A stretch of DNA of 61,749 bases, the filler included, from Globobulimina sp. (taxonomy: Eukaryota), in assembly GCA_003354225.1 (NCBI GenBank). It is 27 parts of 27 records of this genome, joined end to end, with 100 filler letters (N's around TTAATTAATTAA, not from the genome) between each part and the next. Parts side by side here need not be neighbours in the genome. Positions count along the whole stretch, not along the records: positions 6,879 to 9,070 come from PIVH01008290.1; positions 9,171 to 11,362 come from PIVH01008291.1; 25 more parts are not named here. One strand, 5' to 3'. Made by a program: the position numbers and the translations under genes. Shown here piece after piece: positions 4,587 through 55,833 of this stretch. The stretch's first letter is position 1; each line of letters opens with the position of its first letter. The notes beneath the pieces are model-generated. The model was not told the origin of the DNA. It ran no database searches and was given only the letters and a program-made list of their open reading frames with translations.

Positions 4587-5520
4587 GAGATCGATGCCGT
4601 CGCTGAGAGCGAATGCATTTTATGTTGCTGGCTTTGACGCAGAAATAATAGCGAAATGTACATTATATTTACTGTTTATAGGCCGATTATACAACCGGAA
4701 TTTCCAAAAAATATATAAATATTCGCGCACATTACTCTATGTCTTGTGGTGTATTGTATTTCTAATTTGTGCCATGGCAGCAACGATTTCCGCATTATTT
4801 GGAATATATTTCTTTTCTCCGCAGTACGATTTGCAGCTTGGCTCCTTGCAGGATATCAATATAATGTATATCTGTTCCATTGCCTCCTTTGTTTTGATGG
4901 ATGTTATATTGTCAATAATTACCTTATATCTATTCATTAAGCCTTTGTGTAGTTATTATCCATTACTTGTTTTGCCCGACGATGCAATGCGAGCATCATT
5001 ATTTCCGCAAACAATTAAAATGAGGAAACAGATTAAAAAGTATTGCATATTGAGCAGCATTGCCATTATCTCATCGACAATTTTTGCACTCACTGCGATG
5101 GGCAGAGAAATATTCAAATTTGATTGGTTCATCACTGGTAAATTAAATGACGACATTTATTCAATTATTTCAAACACTTTATTGCAAATTGATAGTGTCA
5201 TCTCTATGAATTGTATTTATTTTGGATTTGTGAATAATAGCTATTCATGGCTGACAAAGGCAATTTCAATGATGTTTTGTTGTGAATGTGGTAAATGCAG
5301 TCAATGTGCACAGGATTGTTTATATGTTTATTGTATGTGCCCTCATGGCAAACATAATAAATATTATTTTGAGAATGTGTCCACGGGGAGACAGCACAAA
5401 ACAAAATCAGGAGCAGATGAGCAAAGTGATATGGATACTGATAAAAATTCGATGTTGTTAAAGGTTTCGGCAAATAGCTTGCAACAAACACTGCCGCTTG
5501 TCTTCGAAAATATATATTGA
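4587..5520 (+). CDS. Multi-pass (7TM-like) membrane protein, 5' partial
   Basis: Several hydrophobic helices and a Cys-rich tail; same architecture as 22921-23992. Confidence 0.55.
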
Positions 5521-5789
5521 AAACAAATTATGTGTTTTAGACAGTTTGTTATGTATATGTTTATTAAAGAGTTAGCGAGACTTTTCTGATTATTTGTGTT
5601 GCCATTATGCAGATTTGCAATTTATGCGTTTTCTAGTGTCTTTCTTTCGACTTTATTACCATGCATTATACAGCAAATATCCCTATCATTTCAAGTTATA
5701 CATCCTATTAAATCAATTTCAAAGTTTGTTACATAGAATAATAAATACTTACAGCAATTCTATGGATTTACAGCGCAGCAGGATGCCAA

Positions 5790-6395
5790 ATGACATTGAC
5801 AGGATATACTCCACGGAGCACGTCCGATGATGGATGTAAAACGTTAGCAATAATATGTTCGGCAGGAAATGAACGGTGGGATATAGAAGGCTGTGGATGT
5901 GGTTGCAAACCGGATTGTGTGCGATTGGGCGATACATACTTTGGTAACTTTGAAACATGTCAAGCAAATATAGCACGTGTTTCATGTCCAGGAGAAGGAC
6001 AAGAATTTTGGTCTGATGACAAGTGTGGATGTGGTTGTACTTCGAATTCAGGTTTGATATTCAGATTGATATAAATAAATTGTTTCTGAAGAAAATAAAT
6101 ATTTATAGGCATAGCTGCAGATATTAAGGAAGAGGATATAAACTATTTTGGATTTATAAATTTTGATATGAATAGATTTGCAATTTATGAGTTTATATTA
6201 ATGATCTTTATTTTAATGGCATTTGTATTAAATGTAACATTTGTTAGTTATTTCTGTGTGGTAAGATTTAAAGATTTGGATTATTCATTTGTTAGCGATA
6301 TAAATCGGAATAATAGACATAAAATATTATATACAAAAACAGCAACAGATTGTTCTGACGATGACACATCTTTGGAGAATGTGTTCGATTCATAA
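5790..6395 (+). CDS. Small Cys-rich single-pass membrane protein (probable intron about 6052-6109); start uncertain
   Basis: Two CGCGC motifs; downstream exon has a TM helix. Confidence 0.4.
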
Positions 6396-6878: not shown

Positions 6879-7120
6879 ATGTCAGTAAAAATTAACCGAT
6901 TAAAATTACGATCCCTTTGGAACAGTGAGTACACCATTTTTATTACTCAGATAATTGCTATAGTTACCAAGTACAAGCCCGAAGTATTAAACCTTACAAA
7001 AGCCTTTGGTAAGTTGACCAAATTTGTACCCGAGTTAGCAAAAATTAAAGCACAAGAGCTAGGCAGTGCCCTTAGCAAATTATTACTTAATTTAGATAAT
7101 GAACGCGATATTTTGTTTGA
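6879..7120 (+). CDS. N-terminal fragment of a bacterial DUF6261/HagB-like protein fused to the retroelement (probable chimera)
   Basis: KINRLKLRSLWNSEY...LDNERDILF pattern; RT similarity in another frame begins at about 7121. Confidence 0.5.
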
Positions 7121-8092
7121 TGCTATTGTGGGGCAATTAAAGAGAGAACTGGGAAGACGGTATACTGGTCAATTGATGGTGGTCTACAGGCTCTAGCTAA
7201 AGTGCAAAGAATGGGGAACAGATTACAGAGTGTGCAAACTGCGGACTTCAGCACATTATTTAAAAGTTTTGATCATACAGTTATCAAACAGCAAATTTTC
7301 AAATTATTTGATATGTGTATGCGTAATTCTGGGAAAGCATATGTAGTGGAAGGGAAGCGCAATTTATATTATTCGTCAGCACGGGTGGAGGACTATCTTT
7401 CATTGGAATCAACGGAAATTAAAGAACTAATATCCTATATCATTGATGAAACTTATGTTAAATTTGGACCCTGGATGTTTAGACAAACTTGCGGTGTACC
7501 CATGGGAGGAAATGCATCCCCTACCTTGGCGGACCTTACTCTCAGCATGCTGGAATACAATTTCCTATCCAAAAAAGAGAATCAGCAGGTTGCCAGACGC
7601 ATGGGGAATACAGTACGATATATTGATGATATATTAACTATGAATTTTGAGGATCTAATGGATGTAGCTGCACAGATTTATCCTCCCTCATTGCCTTTGG
7701 AAATTACATCCGCTAATTTTGGTAAATGTGATTTTTTGGACATGACTATTACATGTGGTAATAATGCATATATTGCTGTATATAATAAAACGGATGACTT
7801 CAACTTCAATGTTATTAGATATTTATTCGCTGACAGTAATGTTCATAGTAATTTGGGGCTACAGGTTTATCAATCTCAATTGCTTCGTTTTCTCAGGATT
7901 AGTAATCGCTTGAATAATCTTATTAGCAGAAATAGGGAATTGTTTTTCAGTTTGGTTTCCAATGGTTTTAACAGATTTGATTTGATTAATTGCTCATTTA
8001 AATTCTATGAACGACATAAAATGGAAATACTCAAATTTGGTCTAACAGATAATAAAGAGATAGCACGTTTTATCTGCACTTTTACAAATTAA
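7121..8092 (+). CDS. Reverse transcriptase (C-terminal part) of a Penelope-like element, Naiad/Chlamys-like
   Basis: Frame open from 7121: YCGAIKERTGKTVYWSID, ADFSTLF, QTCGVPMGGNASP, RYIDD, IYPPSL, FLD, YNKTDDFNF, SNVH..VYQSQLLRF; no C-terminal GIY-YIG domain. Confidence 0.88.
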   Translation, partial: CYCGAIKERTGKTVYWSIDGGLQALAKVQRMGNRLQSVQTADFSTLFKSFDHTVIKQQIFKLFDMCMRNSGKAYVVEGKRNLYYSSARVEDYLSLESTEIKELISYIIDETYVKFGPWMFRQTCGVPMGGNASPTLADLTLSMLEYNFLSKKENQQVARRMGNTVRYIDDILTMNFEDLMDVAAQIYPPSLPLEITSANFGKCDFLDMTITCGNNAYIAVYNKTDDFNFNVIRYLFADSNVHSNLGLQVYQSQLLRFLRISNRLNNLISRNRELFFSLVSNGFNRFDLINCSFKFYERHKMEILKFGLTDNKEIARFICTFTN

Positions 8093-8141
8093 AAATTTGC
8101 TCATAGTATTAATTTAGCAGGTAAAATACTGCCCTATTTAA

Positions 8142-8433
8142 AAGCTGTATACCTAGCTGGGGGTATACATTGCCCAGCTTAACCAGTAGTTCAATAGCCG
8201 GTATACTTCGCTGGGAGTATATCCTCAATGGCATTACCAGTTGCTTAGTAACCTTTTTGGTTGAAATGACAATGTGACGTCACTTGGCGTCTTACATATT
8301 AATTTGACGATTCCTTAGCATGACTTCTTAAGCAGTAGGCCTAGCTGGGGGCTTACTTTAATGCTTAACCAGTAGTTCAATTGCCGTACACCTGGCTGGG
8401 AGTGTACATATCATGGCTTACCAGTAGTTCAAT
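8142..8433 (+). repeat. Four ~52-nt structured repeats (8142-8195, 8197-8247, 8329-8381, 8383-8433)
   Basis: Consensus GCn-stem-(N)GCTGG loop-stem-variable-nGC-TT(A)ACCAGTAGTTCAAT, with compensatory stem changes. Confidence 0.9.
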
Positions 8434-8719
8434 ATACTGTAGATTTACTACATGGCGTCAGCCTGATGCCGTTGGTATTGGTTTTACGAATGGACGCACA
8501 AACCCAAAATTGCACGTAATCGACTGTTTTTGATTAAAAATTCGCAAAAATTTGGTTATTACGAGCAAAAAGTGATGATAACAAGAAAACCAGTTTCTTA
8601 AAGACCGTCAAGACGAAAAATTATCTGCGGTAAGAAATTCAGTCTTCTCATAAACGCTTACTTTTTTATTCTGATTTGGTTTCGGCTGTTTTGTTTTTTG
8701 TATATTTTTCAGAATTGCC

Positions 8720-8872
8720 ATGGGTCGTGGATATGGTCGAGGAGGTCGAGGAGGTGGCGGTCATGAGAGAGGAGGTCAAAGAGGACGGGGTGGTGAGCAT
8801 GTTGGACGCAGGCAGCAGCTGAACACAAATAAAAGATCCCGCCGGGAGTATACTCCAGTTAGTTTATTTTAA
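8720..8872 (+). CDS. RGG-rich micro-ORF/first coding exon (MGRGYGRGGRGGGGHERGGQRGRGG...)
   Basis: GCCATGG start context just after putative intron 8630-8712 (GTAAGA...TTTTTCAG); GTTAGT donor at 8858. Confidence 0.6.
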   Translation: MGRGYGRGGRGGGGHERGGQRGRGGEHVGRRQQLNTNKRSRREYTPVSLF

Positions 8873-8949
8873 GAGCGTTTAAATAACTATGTTTTATTAT
8901 ATTTATAATAACGTGTTATGTGGTGTAATTTTCGGTAGCTATTTTTAAT

Positions 8950-9043
8950 GGTTTATTGGTTTCTTCTGATGAAGGTCCCGCCAATAAACCAGCAGGTCTA
9001 CTAAAAATTGAGTCAAGAAACAGGGACCGAAACTCAATTTTTA
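8950..9043 (+). ncRNA. Hammerhead ribozyme, non-circularly permuted
   Basis: CTGATGA 8966-8972, GAAA 9029-9032, GTC 9012-9014; stem I 8959-8965/9015-9021, stem II 8974-8979/9023-9028, stem III 9002-9013/9032-9043. Confidence 0.88.
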
Positions 9044-9685
9044 TTATTATTATTTTATGCTACCTGCAGTNNNNNNNNNNNNNNNNNNNNNNNNNNNNNN
9101 NNNNNNNNNNNNNNTTAATTAATTAANNNNNNNNNNNNNNNNNNNNNNNNNNNNNNNNNNNNNNNNNNNNTGACCATGGGTGGAGAGACAGTCCTTTTTA
9201 CATACATCTAACTGGGGGAATGCATTTTTCTCAATAATGAAAAGTGTCCTATTATTCCTAACAGGGCGACAGTCTGAATGCGGATTTTTAAGATCGATTT
9301 GCTAATCTACTGGACTGTGTAGTAACTATATAACTCTACTTTTCCTAGTGGCAGGCATTTCCTGTATGTATACATCCAAATGGGTTAAATTCCACTGTAC
9401 CAACATAAATGAATGAAATGGCGGATACAAAATTCAATATAGTAGCACTGCGGCGTCCCGCTAGCTACTTTTTGGACACTAGCTGGTGGAGAGACATCCG
9501 TTCATTCCGATCAGGCATATCCAACACCTTAGACGCCCTTAATGGACCAGCAAGTTCACGGATTACTCTTCCTTAGCATACACCTGCTTTATTGCGTCAC
9601 ATATGTTGCCAAATTAATTTTAAATAGTGATTAGCCAATGCCCAACGACTCAGTTGATACCAAGGCACACTGAGATCACCTATCA

Positions 9686-11462: not shown

Positions 11463-12974
11463 AAAGACAAAGACGCAGATGACCCAGATATAGAAGTACT
11501 AGATAAAGAAACAGGACAATTCGAACCTGATGTAGATGATACAAATATACAAAATATAAATGAACAAAATAGACAATTATTAAGTGCTACTTCATCTCAT
11601 AGTGATGATTTAAGTGGAGAATATGATGTTTTCAGAAAACCAACAGATTGGGAAGTCAGCAGTAGAAGAAGATCTCGAGGTATGAGAAGAGGTGGAAGAG
11701 GTAGATATACTAGAGGAAATGATAGAGCATCACCTCCTTTCTCATTACCTACAGATGATAAACACCCGAGATCTTCATCAAGAGATAGATTAGAAACTGA
11801 AAAACCTGCATATTCATTTATAAATAGAGGTGGACACCAAGTAAATTGGTCTGCAGCTAGAATGTTTGGTCTTAATACAAAAAGGAAATCCTTACACGGA
11901 TCATCAGATAGTATATTTTCAGGCGATGAACATAAAGTTCAAAAAGTTATGAGTCCATTAGAAATGTTTGAAAGTGCTAAAAATAAATGCAAAAAAATCC
12001 CCTATAAAAGGGAATTTAATGAAGACTTTCAATATCATAATCAGACCTTTGCAGATATAACAACTTATTATAAACAAACAGATATACATGCTGATAAATG
12101 TAAAAATATAGATGGAGCAGATACAAAAGGAATACGTACTATTCCGATACCATTAGAAAAAATGGCAGAACGAATAAATATAAATAAATTTGGACAAAGA
12201 TATGACACAAGATCTACATTTAAAATGCCAGGCAATTTAAAAGTATCTGTGATAGGAGACTCAACCATTTATGGGGTAGAATATTTCTTAGATATAACAG
12301 CTAAAGAACCAGAAGTTCAACAGAATGTACACTATTTAGGAATGAAAACTTCAGGAAGTGCATTAATAAGCTGTAGACTTAGACAAATGGCACCCGTTAT
12401 CCCAGCATTAACAATGAGAGACGAGGATGTCATAGTAATAAAATGTATTTTAGATATAGCAGATATTGTTGATACATATTATGCAGCAGGTATGATCGAA
12501 AATTCTTGGATACCATTTGCAGATGAACTTTTAGCAGATATTAGCAAAATTTGTCATAATATAAATGGAATACACAAAAATGTATTGATGCTTGTAAATT
12601 TAACTGCACCAATACTATCAAATAAAAATTATATGTCAGATATTAATGATCCAGGATTTTTGACAATAATTCAAAAAATAGAAAATTATTTGGCACGTAA
12701 AGTAGATGATCTAGCCAAACAGTTCAAAATTCCGATTAGATATATTATGCTACATTCAGCCATAGCAGAACAGACATATAAATTAAAAAATGAAGCTGAA
12801 AAAGAAACTAATGAATCAATTACAGTAGAAAATGCATTAAGTAAATTTGTATCAGGTATTAAATTGACAAGAAATGGAAACAAGGTTTTGGCCAATGAAA
12901 TGTTTAGAGAAATGGTCACTGGTTGGATCAAATTTGTCAATGAGAAAATTTTAACCGGAAATCCGGGAAACTAG
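11463..12974 (+). CDS. Non-LTR retrotransposon ORF1 with SGNH/GDSL esterase-like domain, 5' partial
   Basis: VSVIGDS block I, SGIKLTRNGNKVLA block V-like; frame open to contig edge; 14 bp upstream of the APE ORF. Confidence 0.65.
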   Translation, partial: KDKDADDPDIEVLDKETGQFEPDVDDTNIQNINEQNRQLLSATSSHSDDLSGEYDVFRKPTDWEVSSRRRSRGMRRGGRGRYTRGNDRASPPFSLPTDDKHPRSSSRDRLETEKPAYSFINRGGHQVNWSAARMFGLNTKRKSLHGSSDSIFSGDEHKVQKVMSPLEMFESAKNKCKKIPYKREFNEDFQYHNQTFADITTYYKQTDIHADKCKNIDGADTKGIRTIPIPLEKMAERININKFGQRYDTRSTFKMPGNLKVSVIGDSTIYGVEYFLDITAKEPEVQQNVHYLGMKTSGSALISCRLRQMAPVIPALTMRDEDVIVIKCILDIADIVDTYYAAGMIENSWIPFADELLADISKICHNINGIHKNVLMLVNLTAPILSNKNYMSDINDPGFLTIIQKIENYLARKVDDLAKQFKIPIRYIMLHSAIAEQTYKLKNEAEKETNESITVENALSKFVSGIKLTRNGNKVLANEMFREMVTGWIKFVNEKILTGNPGN

Positions 12975-12988
12975 ACAAGGTCAGTACA

Positions 12989-13654
12989 ATGCCTAGTTTT
13001 CACAATAATCCTAAATTTAATAATTTTACTATTCCAGATTATCAGAAATCAAAAAATCCACAAAGATGGTATTCAGGAAAAAGATCTAAAGATAAGAAAT
13101 TATATTTGGATCAAAATATTGATATATTATATAACAATGTATTATCTATGAATTCAAAAATTGATATTATATATGAACATTTAAAAGAAATAAAATTAGA
13201 TATTATATGTTGTGTTGAAACAAGATATAAAAATGTATTAGACACTCATAAAATACATGGATACGAAAGCTTTCATAAGATGCAAGTAGATAATAAAACA
13301 GGAGGGATTAGTGTATGGGCTAAAGTAGATTCCAAACCTACTAGACTAGATATTGATGACATGGATGATGAGATAAGTACAAATTATCTATGGATATTAT
13401 GTCAAAATAAAAATATGACAGCTGTATGTACAGTGTATCTAAGACATCAAGGAGCAAAAAATGCGCTAGATACCAATATAAAAATCTGTCAAAGACTTGC
13501 AAATCATATTAATTGGTGCAAAATTAGAAATTATAATATTATAATAGTTGGAGATTTTAACGGTCACATTGGCAATGATGATTTGGGTATCATTGGCAAT
13601 CATGATCCGATAAACGACAATGGACATATTATTAGAAATTTTACCAAAGAGTCA
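12989..13654 (+). CDS. Non-LTR retrotransposon ORF2, APE endonuclease domain, 3' partial
   Basis: ILYNNV, DIICCVET, GGISVW, IIVGDFNGHIG. Confidence 0.85.
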
Positions 13655-55352: not shown

Positions 55353-55833
55353 TGACGTCGTAAAAAGTCCGCTCTCCTGCTCGCTCTTCATAATTTCTTA
55401 ATGTCCAGGCTGTATGATCAACCATTTGGACATTGTAAGCAATCTTTAGGCAGTTGTATTTTGCTACGTACTAACCCTGGTGAACAGGAAGAGAGCCAGG
55501 ATAAGTACCTTGGTGGTATGTGCAACCAAGGAGTTTCAAAATATAATCCTCGTTTTCTTGTTTTTTTTGCCAGAAGATGGGGAGTAAGGTACTAATGTAT
55601 TCAGTAAAACACACCACAACAAGGCGTGTAACCGAAAATGGATTATTGCTTACCTCTACAACAAATGCTCCTATATATTTGGCATTACGTTTTATAAACT
55701 TAATCAAACAAATCGTGAAAAACTTCAGTAAACTCGTTTTAAAGGTGCCTCAATGAAAGAGATTGCATACACAACACACGGACAACAAGTAACAATATTA
55801 TACGGTGGGTCAATTTACAACCGGAGCTTATTC

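Follow-up and report, generated by a model that had tools for sequence, protein, structure and literature searches.

Near the end of one contig of the Globobulimina sp. genome assembly (GCA_003354225.1), a short open reading frame (ORF) rich in arginine and glycine lies between two intron-like stretches, the second of which holds a hammerhead ribozyme. This leads to the question what such an exon encodes, to what it could be spliced, and how the ribozyme relates to it. The window analysed in this study is a stretch of 61,749 nucleotides composed of 27 unrelated pieces of approximately 2,190 bases each, split by 52 N runs of 44 bases paired around linkers. The locus lies within the piece at positions 6879-9070 (PIVH01008290.1), and position 9070 is an artificial contig end, because the window was built of pieces joined via N linkers. 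The answer that we favour, at a confidence slightly above even, is that the region represents the 3' module of a truncated Naiad-type Penelope-like element (PLE), composed of an intron in the 5' untranslated region (UTR), a detached ORF1 start exon, a phase-0 donor and a terminal type-CSG hammerhead, and that it would act by splicing across tandem copies.

By homology, the piece carries a 5'-truncated Naiad-type PLE, of which the following coding part remains:

7124..8092, + strand: C-terminal third of the endonuclease-reverse transcriptase (EN-RT) ORF, stop codon 8090-8092, from tblastn of full-length relatives

The ORF at 7202-8092 is an RT fragment (Pfam RVT_1, sub-threshold, E 6.4e-4), and all seven full-length relatives (906-1061 aa) aligned by tblastn at 7124-8074, reaching their own C-termini. 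RT homologues of similar length numbered 40 among 406 candidates. Among 1267 longer candidates 53 scored (539-1061 aa), and 24 of these 53 carry a GIY-YIG domain (PF01541). In the eight relative sequences inspected, GIY-YIG is N-terminal and the RT stands at the protein end; ORF2 of the relative locus L081 has GIY-YIG at residues 128-211 and RVT_1 at 627-831, and a DKA motif is visible in relatives P0041, P0043 and P0044. This domain order, GIY-YIG first and RT last, is described for the Naiad/Chlamys clade of PLEs in the text of PMC8557442. The window RT shares homology with RTs from PLEs whose GIY-YIG endonuclease is N-terminal, whereas its own N-terminal part, where the EN and the CxC and DKA motifs would lie, is absent because the copy is 5'-truncated at approximately 7124. 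At this truncation point a contig of run X1 (see below) diverges as well, before 7127.

Downstream of the RT stop, the proposed exon and its borders were assigned as follows:

8630..8712, + strand: putative 83-nt 5'-UTR intron (intron 1), GCG/GTAAGA ... TATATTTTTCAG (motif reading, GC content, relatives)
8713..8857, + strand: start exon with a 7-nt leader, ATG at 8720 in GCCATGG, 46 codons (ORF, GC content, relatives)
8858..8863, + strand: phase-0 donor GTTAGT of a putative second intron, CCA/GTTAGT (sequence, relatives)

The motifs of the initial annotation were all located as it had described them, namely GTAAGA at 8630-8635, a T-rich tract whose CAG ends at 8712, GCCATGG, in which the ATG is at 8720, 46 codons, GTTAGT at 8858 and CTGCAG at 9064-9069. 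It had also correctly described the unspliced ORF, whose stop ends at 8872 after 50 aa, four codons past the GT. An RGG/RG region consists of several closely spaced RGG or RG repeats. The 46-residue exon is such a region, with 15 G and 11 R among its codons, 4 RGG and 6 RG, and a candidate for RNA binding. In addition to the RGG box it carries a basic NKRSRRE cluster, and it ends in ..EYTP. The GC fraction rises from 0.29 in the proposed intron 1 to 0.56 in the exon and falls to 0.22 past the donor. Internal 9- and 21-nt repeats (family D3) are contained in the exon.

Contigs from three sequencing runs (X1-X3) of one sample and one study were compared with the piece; 17 X1 contigs and one X2 contig fit it. 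A diverged X1 paralogue differs from the window exon at three positions (8839, 8842 and 8851), all three being synonymous third positions. In this paralogue GTTAGT is unchanged, and 8 substitutions and a 6-nt deletion follow within 8864-8952. No splice-like joint at 8629/8713 or 8857 was present in the X1-X3 contigs, and contigs of this kind cannot speak to splicing; the only joints in them were one that skips 114 nt at 7302/7417 and one between opposite strands at 8331/8644. In view of this paralogue and of the two closest relatives described next, the RGG ORF probably represents a genuine exon.

The arrangement was then sought in 106 relative loci, comprising 80 metagenome loci and 26 further loci. 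RG-rich frames past the RT stop on the same strand were found in two of the 106, L001 and L002, which are the two closest relatives of the window. In L001 an ATG at 2350 opens 82 codons ending in ..EYQ/GTACGC, and the frame stops 14 codons past the GT. In L002 a GTGAGT ... TATATTTTTGCAG stretch ends 17 nt ahead of the ATG at 2172, the exon has 52 codons ending in ..PKQ/GTGGGT, and the frame stops 3 codons past the GT. The frames of L001, L002 and the window accordingly end 3-14 codons past a phase-0 GT. Equivalent exons closed by phase-0 GT donors occur in six elements, the window, L001, L002, L081, L082 and L083, and intron 1, a GT...AG stretch with a pyrimidine tract, has analogues in L002, L081 and L083. 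The comparison backs two parts of the initial annotation at the level of sequence: an intron-like GT, pyrimidine tract and AG just ahead of the ATG, and an RGG coding exon with a phase-0 donor, the latter through the L001 and L002 counterparts and the synonymous changes in the paralogue. The combination of start-codon exon, phase-0 donor and permuted hammerhead recurs in the relatives and therefore constitutes a conserved 3' module.

The acceptor of the second intron is visible only in L081 and L082, two relatives in partial tandem. L082 is a tandem in which positions 1-780 are repeated at 5276-6050 with 93% identity. Its start exon lies approximately 850 nt past ORF2 (ATG at 4958, 18 codons, CAA/GTAATA donor at 5012) and is followed by a hammerhead and the next unit. 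The acceptor GATTTGCAG ends at 231 and again at 5504, in phase with a 212-aa ORF1, in which a stop 6 codons upstream closes the frame and the first in-frame Met is residue 85. At the contig start of L081 all 98 bases of the upstream copy match (98 of 98), and divergence follows. Here TTTTTCAG stands 27 nt before the ATG of the start exon (ATG at 4777, 37 codons, CAG/GTAGAT), and the reading frame of ORF1 begins at 524, immediately past ...TTTGCATAG. L083 has a long pyrimidine tract with a CAG 20 nt before an ATG, 5 codons, /GTAAGC and then a hammerhead. No in-phase acceptor was found in the tandem-looking L003, and the upstream sequence of L005 is a GC-rich flank. Read from the sequence, in both loci where the next unit is visible, L081 and L082, the acceptor is in phase 0 and ORF1 lacks a start of its own. 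The initial annotation had proposed that the exon adds an N-terminus to the element protein. This finds a parallel in L081 and L082, whose ATG exon and ORF1 are both in phase 0, whereas the EN-RT it had named as partner gives way to an ORF1 resembling that of LINE-1 (LINE, long interspersed nuclear element).

These data also bear on the alternative that the RGG ORF is a self-standing small ORF, never joined to anything, which would yield a 50-aa peptide or act as a regulatory upstream ORF of unspliced RNA. Its ATG is in a good context and its stop follows 4 codons past the GT, the RG-rich ORFs of L001 and L002 also stop 14 and 3 codons past theirs, and synonymous-only variation is compatible with any coding use. 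Yet a small ORF leaves unexplained why a phase-0 GT stands just before each stop in six elements, and why the start-less ORF1 of L081 and L082 opens at an AG of the same phase. We regard it as unlikely.

The ORF1 of the relatives was located upstream of EN-RT by homology and fold:

L081, 524-1120: ORF1
L082, 232-867 and 5505-6050: ORF1, in both units
L083, 1-453: ORF1

The L081 and L082 ORF1s are homologous (E 6e-10). A Pfam search with both gave no family above the cut-off, and an L1 trimerisation domain scored below threshold (E 0.044). A structure model of the L082 ORF1, made from 38 sequences, reached a predicted local distance difference test (pLDDT) score of 93.3 and displays a long helix followed by alpha/beta domains. 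Each of its top nine matches in the PDB was to the trimer of human LINE-1 ORF1p (E between 3.7e-7 and 5.7e-6, approximately 182-189 aligned columns). The ORF1 of the relatives is accordingly predicted to be a LINE-1-ORF1p-like RNA-binding protein with a coiled coil, an RNA recognition motif (RRM) and a C-terminal domain (CTD). The L082 model resembles LINE-1 ORF1p (PDB 2ykq, 2yko, 2ykp) in this order of long coiled coil, RRM and C-terminal domain, but with approximately 20% sequence identity, in a PLE and not a LINE, and with a start codon apparently supplied by a remote exon. A profile search of a representative library with ORF1 gave 117 proteins at E <= 0.001. Some contiguous homologues begin with Met and a basic cluster, and an RG-rich N-terminus occurs in one of the 117. 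The N-terminus NSRKRPADD of the contiguous homologue P0097 matches SSRKRPRDD of the L081 start exon (E 0.005).

RGG N-termini are common among host RNA-binding proteins, and the region could in principle be a captured piece of a host gene, comprising a 5'-UTR intron, a first RGG-coding exon and the start of its intron. PLEs reportedly keep introns and mobilise host genes that contain introns (PMC8557442, whose text cites Arkhipova 2003 and 2013). Against such a capture, no host-like homologue of the RGG peptide was found, and the same slot holds a start exon in the non-RGG elements L081-L083, where it matches ORF1 N-termini. We consider it very unlikely.

The ribozyme downstream of the donor was resolved into the following parts, all on the + strand:

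8949..9043, + strand: type-CSG non-circularly permuted hammerhead (own scan, anatomy, folding), cleavage predicted
8949-8959/8981-8991, + strand: bridging stem, tying the far ends of helices I and II
8959-8965/9015-9021, + strand: helix I (anatomy)
8966-8972, with A8973, + strand: CUGAUGA of the core
8974-8979/9023-9028, + strand: helix II (anatomy)
9002-9013/9032-9043, + strand: helix III (anatomy)
9029-9032, + strand: GAAA of the core

The order of its blocks is the helix I 5' strand, CUGAUGA and the helix II 5' strand; then the helix III 5' strand, C17 and the helix I 3' strand; and last the helix II 3' strand, GAAA and the helix III 3' strand. Cleavage is predicted after C9014, the end of the GUC triplet, which would release a 29-nt 3' piece, 9015-9043. 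An Rfam search gave no hit at gathering thresholds in the window, and among six hits at E <= 10 in 8000-9070 there was no hammerhead. A canonical hammerhead of types I-III was rejected, as no Rfam model matches and the blocks stand in permuted C-S-G order. The initial annotation had placed a hammerhead inside the second intron; the position downstream of the donor holds, whereas the type is not canonical but permuted type-CSG.

The minimum free energy fold gives two nested hairpins (z = -3.44; none of 200 shuffles was as stable), and the bridging stem of the window was reached by 4 of 2000 shuffles. A strict C-S-G scan of the 80 metagenome loci matched four, all on the RT strand downstream of the stop, compared with no opposite-strand match in 263,822 bases and one match in 20 shuffles of all loci. 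With looser rules seven of the 106 loci matched on the RT strand downstream of the stop, and there was one weak opposite-strand match. The seven, each identified by the C-S-G scan, are:

L001, 2777-2849, RT strand: hammerhead
L003, 3460-3553, RT strand: hammerhead
L004, 2913-2991, RT strand: hammerhead
L041, 1255-1347, RT strand: hammerhead
L063, 1676-1767, RT strand: hammerhead
L082, 5143-5235, RT strand: hammerhead
L083, 4353-4436, RT strand: hammerhead

Together with the window ribozyme these lie 0.5-1.1 kb past the RT stop, and their predicted 3' fragments measure 22-29 nt. The type-CSG core, that is CUGANGA, GAAA and a non-G residue 17 after U16.1, is present in the window and was found in all eight examples, as were G10.1-C11.1, C15.2-G16.2 and the GUC triplet, while N7 is U, A, G or C. 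The block order and bridging helix are accompanied by covariation, with 2-5 pair types per helix position across loci. The pair counts were anchored on the core by script; a MAFFT alignment of the eight hammerheads misplaced the 3' half of the window one. In six of the eight, no more than 22 of 2000 shuffles attained the bridging stem, and in L001 and L004 226 and 380 did. The paralogue is substituted at three paired positions, 8989 (C>T), 8990 (C>T) and 9011 (A>G), and each time pairing is retained as G-U. The extra A8973 between the core and helix II has a likeness in a 1-nt bulge of L063 and L083. By anatomy and comparison, the window ribozyme is a real type-CSG permuted hammerhead. In a subset of paralogous copies (depth 8.4 of 23) one A is missing at 8972-8973, which removes the extra base before helix II.

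The 3' limit of the element coincides with the end of the ribozyme. The region after the RT stop measures 950 nt and ends at approximately 9043, which is also the last pair of helix III; X1 contigs run into unlike sequence after 9041 (n = 1) and 9043 (n = 3). The summed contig depth is approximately 5-7 until 8802 and climbs to 33 towards 9043, a pattern expected of 5'-truncated copies. What follows is short:

9044..9070, + strand: sequence past the element 3' end, (ATT)4-rich, including CTGCAG at 9064-9069

Since the same-sample contigs diverge after 9041/9043, these bases are not a conserved part of the element. The initial annotation had ended the second intron at 8858-9069 with the acceptor CTGCAG, the exon continuing past 9070 into an EN-RT ORF. 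The motif is indeed present and the piece ends at 9070, but the acceptor falls in flank DNA beyond the last pair of helix III, the window copy has its own EN-RT ORF upstream and not downstream, and in the tandem relatives L081 and L082 the acceptor is located approximately 270-480 nt beyond the ribozyme, with ORF1 and not EN-RT opening at it. This version of intron 2 is highly improbable. From the position of the limit, an intron 2 starting at 8858 must extend beyond 9043, with its acceptor outside the window.

Under the tandem splicing model, the start exon with its ATG, RGG box and basic cluster resembling a nuclear localisation signal (NLS) would encode the N-terminus of the ORF1 protein of the element, an ORF1 being presumed for the window's own family. 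A window-type copy in front of a full-length copy would constitute the usual PLE partial tandem or 'pseudo-LTR' (LTR, long terminal repeat), and we infer that transcription would begin in the 3' module of the upstream, often truncated, copy. Intron 1 (8630-8712) would be removed. Intron 2 would span the hammerhead and the copy junction, and the RGG/NLS exon would be spliced to the acceptor at which the ATG-less ORF1 of the following unit opens; the product would be an ORF1p-like chaperone that carries RGG at its N-terminus. If the hammerhead cut first, after C9014, it would sever the start exon and leave an uncapped RNA beginning 29 nt before the unit end, and cleavage at the same site where the element itself ends (3') would shorten the RNA to the length of one unit. 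Slow cleavage at the rates measured for the hammerheads CSG-1 and CSG-2 could let splicing compete with cleavage. The splice-versus-cleave switch proposed in the initial annotation would be such a competition between two RNA fates. A partial tandem is seen in L081 and L082; the window copy has just 27 nt after its 3' end, and, with no downstream unit visible, it may express nothing.

A number of observations weigh against this reading. None of the runs X1-X3 is on record as RNA, and the donor CCA/GTTAGT fits the usual consensus poorly. Splice-like constellations are not rare by chance, and the motifs alone are modestly above chance: a loose filter (GTRAGH donor, pyrimidine-rich YAG 50-200 nt on, ATG within 30 nt, ORF of at least 40 codons) selected this site and three others on both strands of the 61.7-kb window, and a stricter splice-constellation filter over the window missed the 8630-8858 site. 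A protein search with the RGG peptide yielded 95 candidates, none at E <= 10. Tblastn of the L081-L083 ORF1s against the window gave nothing, and the window family shows no ORF1 and no downstream unit; L081-L083, the only loci in which ORF1 was found, have an RT identity to the window of 37-38%. The likeness of the P0152 N-terminus, MRGKWARGAFRG..TRKRYRDDSTP, to ..TNKRSRREYTP of the window (T.KR.R..TP) is weak (E 0.052). A split start exon is not general, because P0097, P0099, P0100 and P0152 are contiguous with their own Met. As for the ribozyme, pairing was a condition of the scan, which makes the helix pair counts partly circular, although the conserved identities were not imposed, and no hammerhead was found in the remaining 283 nt of L002. 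The L081 motif at 4925-5045 agrees in helices I and III and in the GAAA block, but it breaks the block rule because two small hairpins are inserted between CUGAUGA and the helix II strand; it may be inactive or a further variant. L084 has the cleavage-site and GAAA blocks and a 13-bp helix III at 2230-2360, with CUGANGA not intact (CGGAAGA downstream), and looks like a decayed or differently ordered relative.

Some of these points would also suit a chance ORF in a G-rich low-complexity repeat, with fortuitous splice-like signals in AT-rich DNA. The internal D3 repeats of the exon, the three comparable window sites and the lack of a protein homologue in the search above fit this explanation, and a Pfam search with the RGG peptide gave no family. 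It is opposed by the sharp GC step, by the three synonymous changes out of three, and by L001, L002, L081, L082 and L083, in which the arrangement recurs with an unchanged position in relation to RT stop and ribozyme. The observation rises above chance because it is conserved in relatives, and we consider a fortuitous origin quite unlikely. A site that served as chance control lies in an unrelated piece at 55435-55756, with GTAAGC at 55435, an acceptor ending at 55573, an ATG at 55577 and 59 codons.

The tandem splicing model is a variation on a known PLE theme of pseudo-LTR, intron and hammerhead. In Penelope of Drosophila virilis and in Chlamys-3_cRei, the transcription start site lies in the pseudo-LTR and an intron at or across the boundary, as described in the text of PMC8557442; in Penelope the end of the intron abuts helix I, so that spliced and unspliced RNA contain different hammerheads (PMC4209133). 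The likeness to the window type extends to the partial tandem, an intron at or across the boundary of pseudo-LTR and body, and a hammerhead close to the intron (PMC8557442, PMC4209133). In these two elements, as described there, the intron is in the 5' UTR and non-coding, whereas the window-type exon before the intron has a start codon and up to 82 codons, and the whole ribozyme lies within the putative intron, splicing of the window type being a prediction. Because the exon before the intron carries the start codon, the order of the gene parts is permuted within a single unit.

Type-CSG hammerheads were defined as a non-circular permutation from two similar metagenomic DNA sequences by Eckert et al. 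(2023, PMC10085705), in whose main text the in vitro cleavage rates of CSG-1 and CSG-2 are 0.004 and 0.026 per min and a helix joins stems I and II. The present examples share with them the order of a CUGANGA block, a cleavage-site block and a GAAA block, the extra helix tying stems I and II, and an origin in metagenomic DNA; the likeness rests on architecture and not on a sequence comparison. The 3' product is 29 nt in assays of CSG-1 and of CSG-2 and 29 nt by prediction here, with the proviso that the CSG constructs may include flanking bases. Whereas that main text reports two similar sequences with modest covariation and draws no transposon link for type-CSG, eight diverse examples were found here at Naiad 3' ends. 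Naiads lack canonical hammerheads according to the text of Craig et al. (2021, PMC8557442), which lists unexplained 'HHR_core/half_core' cases, describes most Naiad ORFs as uninterrupted and mentions ORF1 just in the legend of its Fig. 1. The window element and its relatives agree with that clade in the C-terminal RT, the N-terminal GIY-YIG of full-length relatives, frequent 5' truncation, partial tandems (in L081 and L082) and AT-rich insertion-site repeats, as far as these are described there. The comparison suggests that type-CSG hammerheads belong to Naiad 3' ends and that some Naiads encode an L1-ORF1p-like ORF1 with its start exon in the 3' module. Most subscription-journal papers and supplements aside, no published link was found between type-CSG and Naiad 3' ends, or between a Naiad ORF1 and a 3'-module start exon.

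PLEs are the least understood class of eukaryotic retroelements, and their partial tandems, kept introns and the role of their hammerheads are presented as open questions in the texts of PMC8557442 and PMC4209133. If a coding exon can join its ORF only by way of the tandem junction, the pseudo-LTR would gain a definite function, and splicing would be set against self-cleavage. The rare type-CSG ribozyme, known from two metagenomic sequences of unknown origin, is placed by these data at the 3' ends of a clade reported to be without canonical hammerheads. A more far-reaching proposal, possible though doubtful at present, is that there is a Naiad subclade with a permuted gene, in which the ORF1 start exon stands at the 3' end before a type-CSG hammerhead, ORF1 can be made only via a tandem copy or a circularised ribozyme-processed RNA, and the hammerhead partitions the transcripts. 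If true, a slow intronic hammerhead would split the transcripts between spliced mRNA and an uncapped unit-length transposition template, Naiads would have hammerheads after all, and the orphan type-CSG ribozymes would gain a first biological home.

Between the RT stop and intron 1 the element carries a further repeated feature:

8142..8440, + strand: four hairpins of approximately 30 nt (GTATAC..GCTGGGGG..GTATAC type), with a conserved box of 24 nt after each (repeat families D1 and D2)

When folded, this hairpin-repeat region was not unusually stable (z = -1.08). Among viral contigs no relative was found. Repeated hairpins or tandem repeats also occur past the RT stop in L003 (2510-3075), L082 (4227-4427) and L083 (3820-3900). 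Before the truncation point, 6879-7123 holds an open frame of 105 aa that matches no Pfam family; coverage of this part (6907-7121) comes from run X2 and not from X1, and the join at approximately 7124 could be an insertion boundary or an assembly join. In another piece, positions 11682-13654 of the window contain a LINE-like ORF pair, of which a 430-aa ORF starts with MRRGGRGRY and has an RG-rich N-terminus, and the ORF after it has a weak Exo_endo_phos match (E 0.0016).

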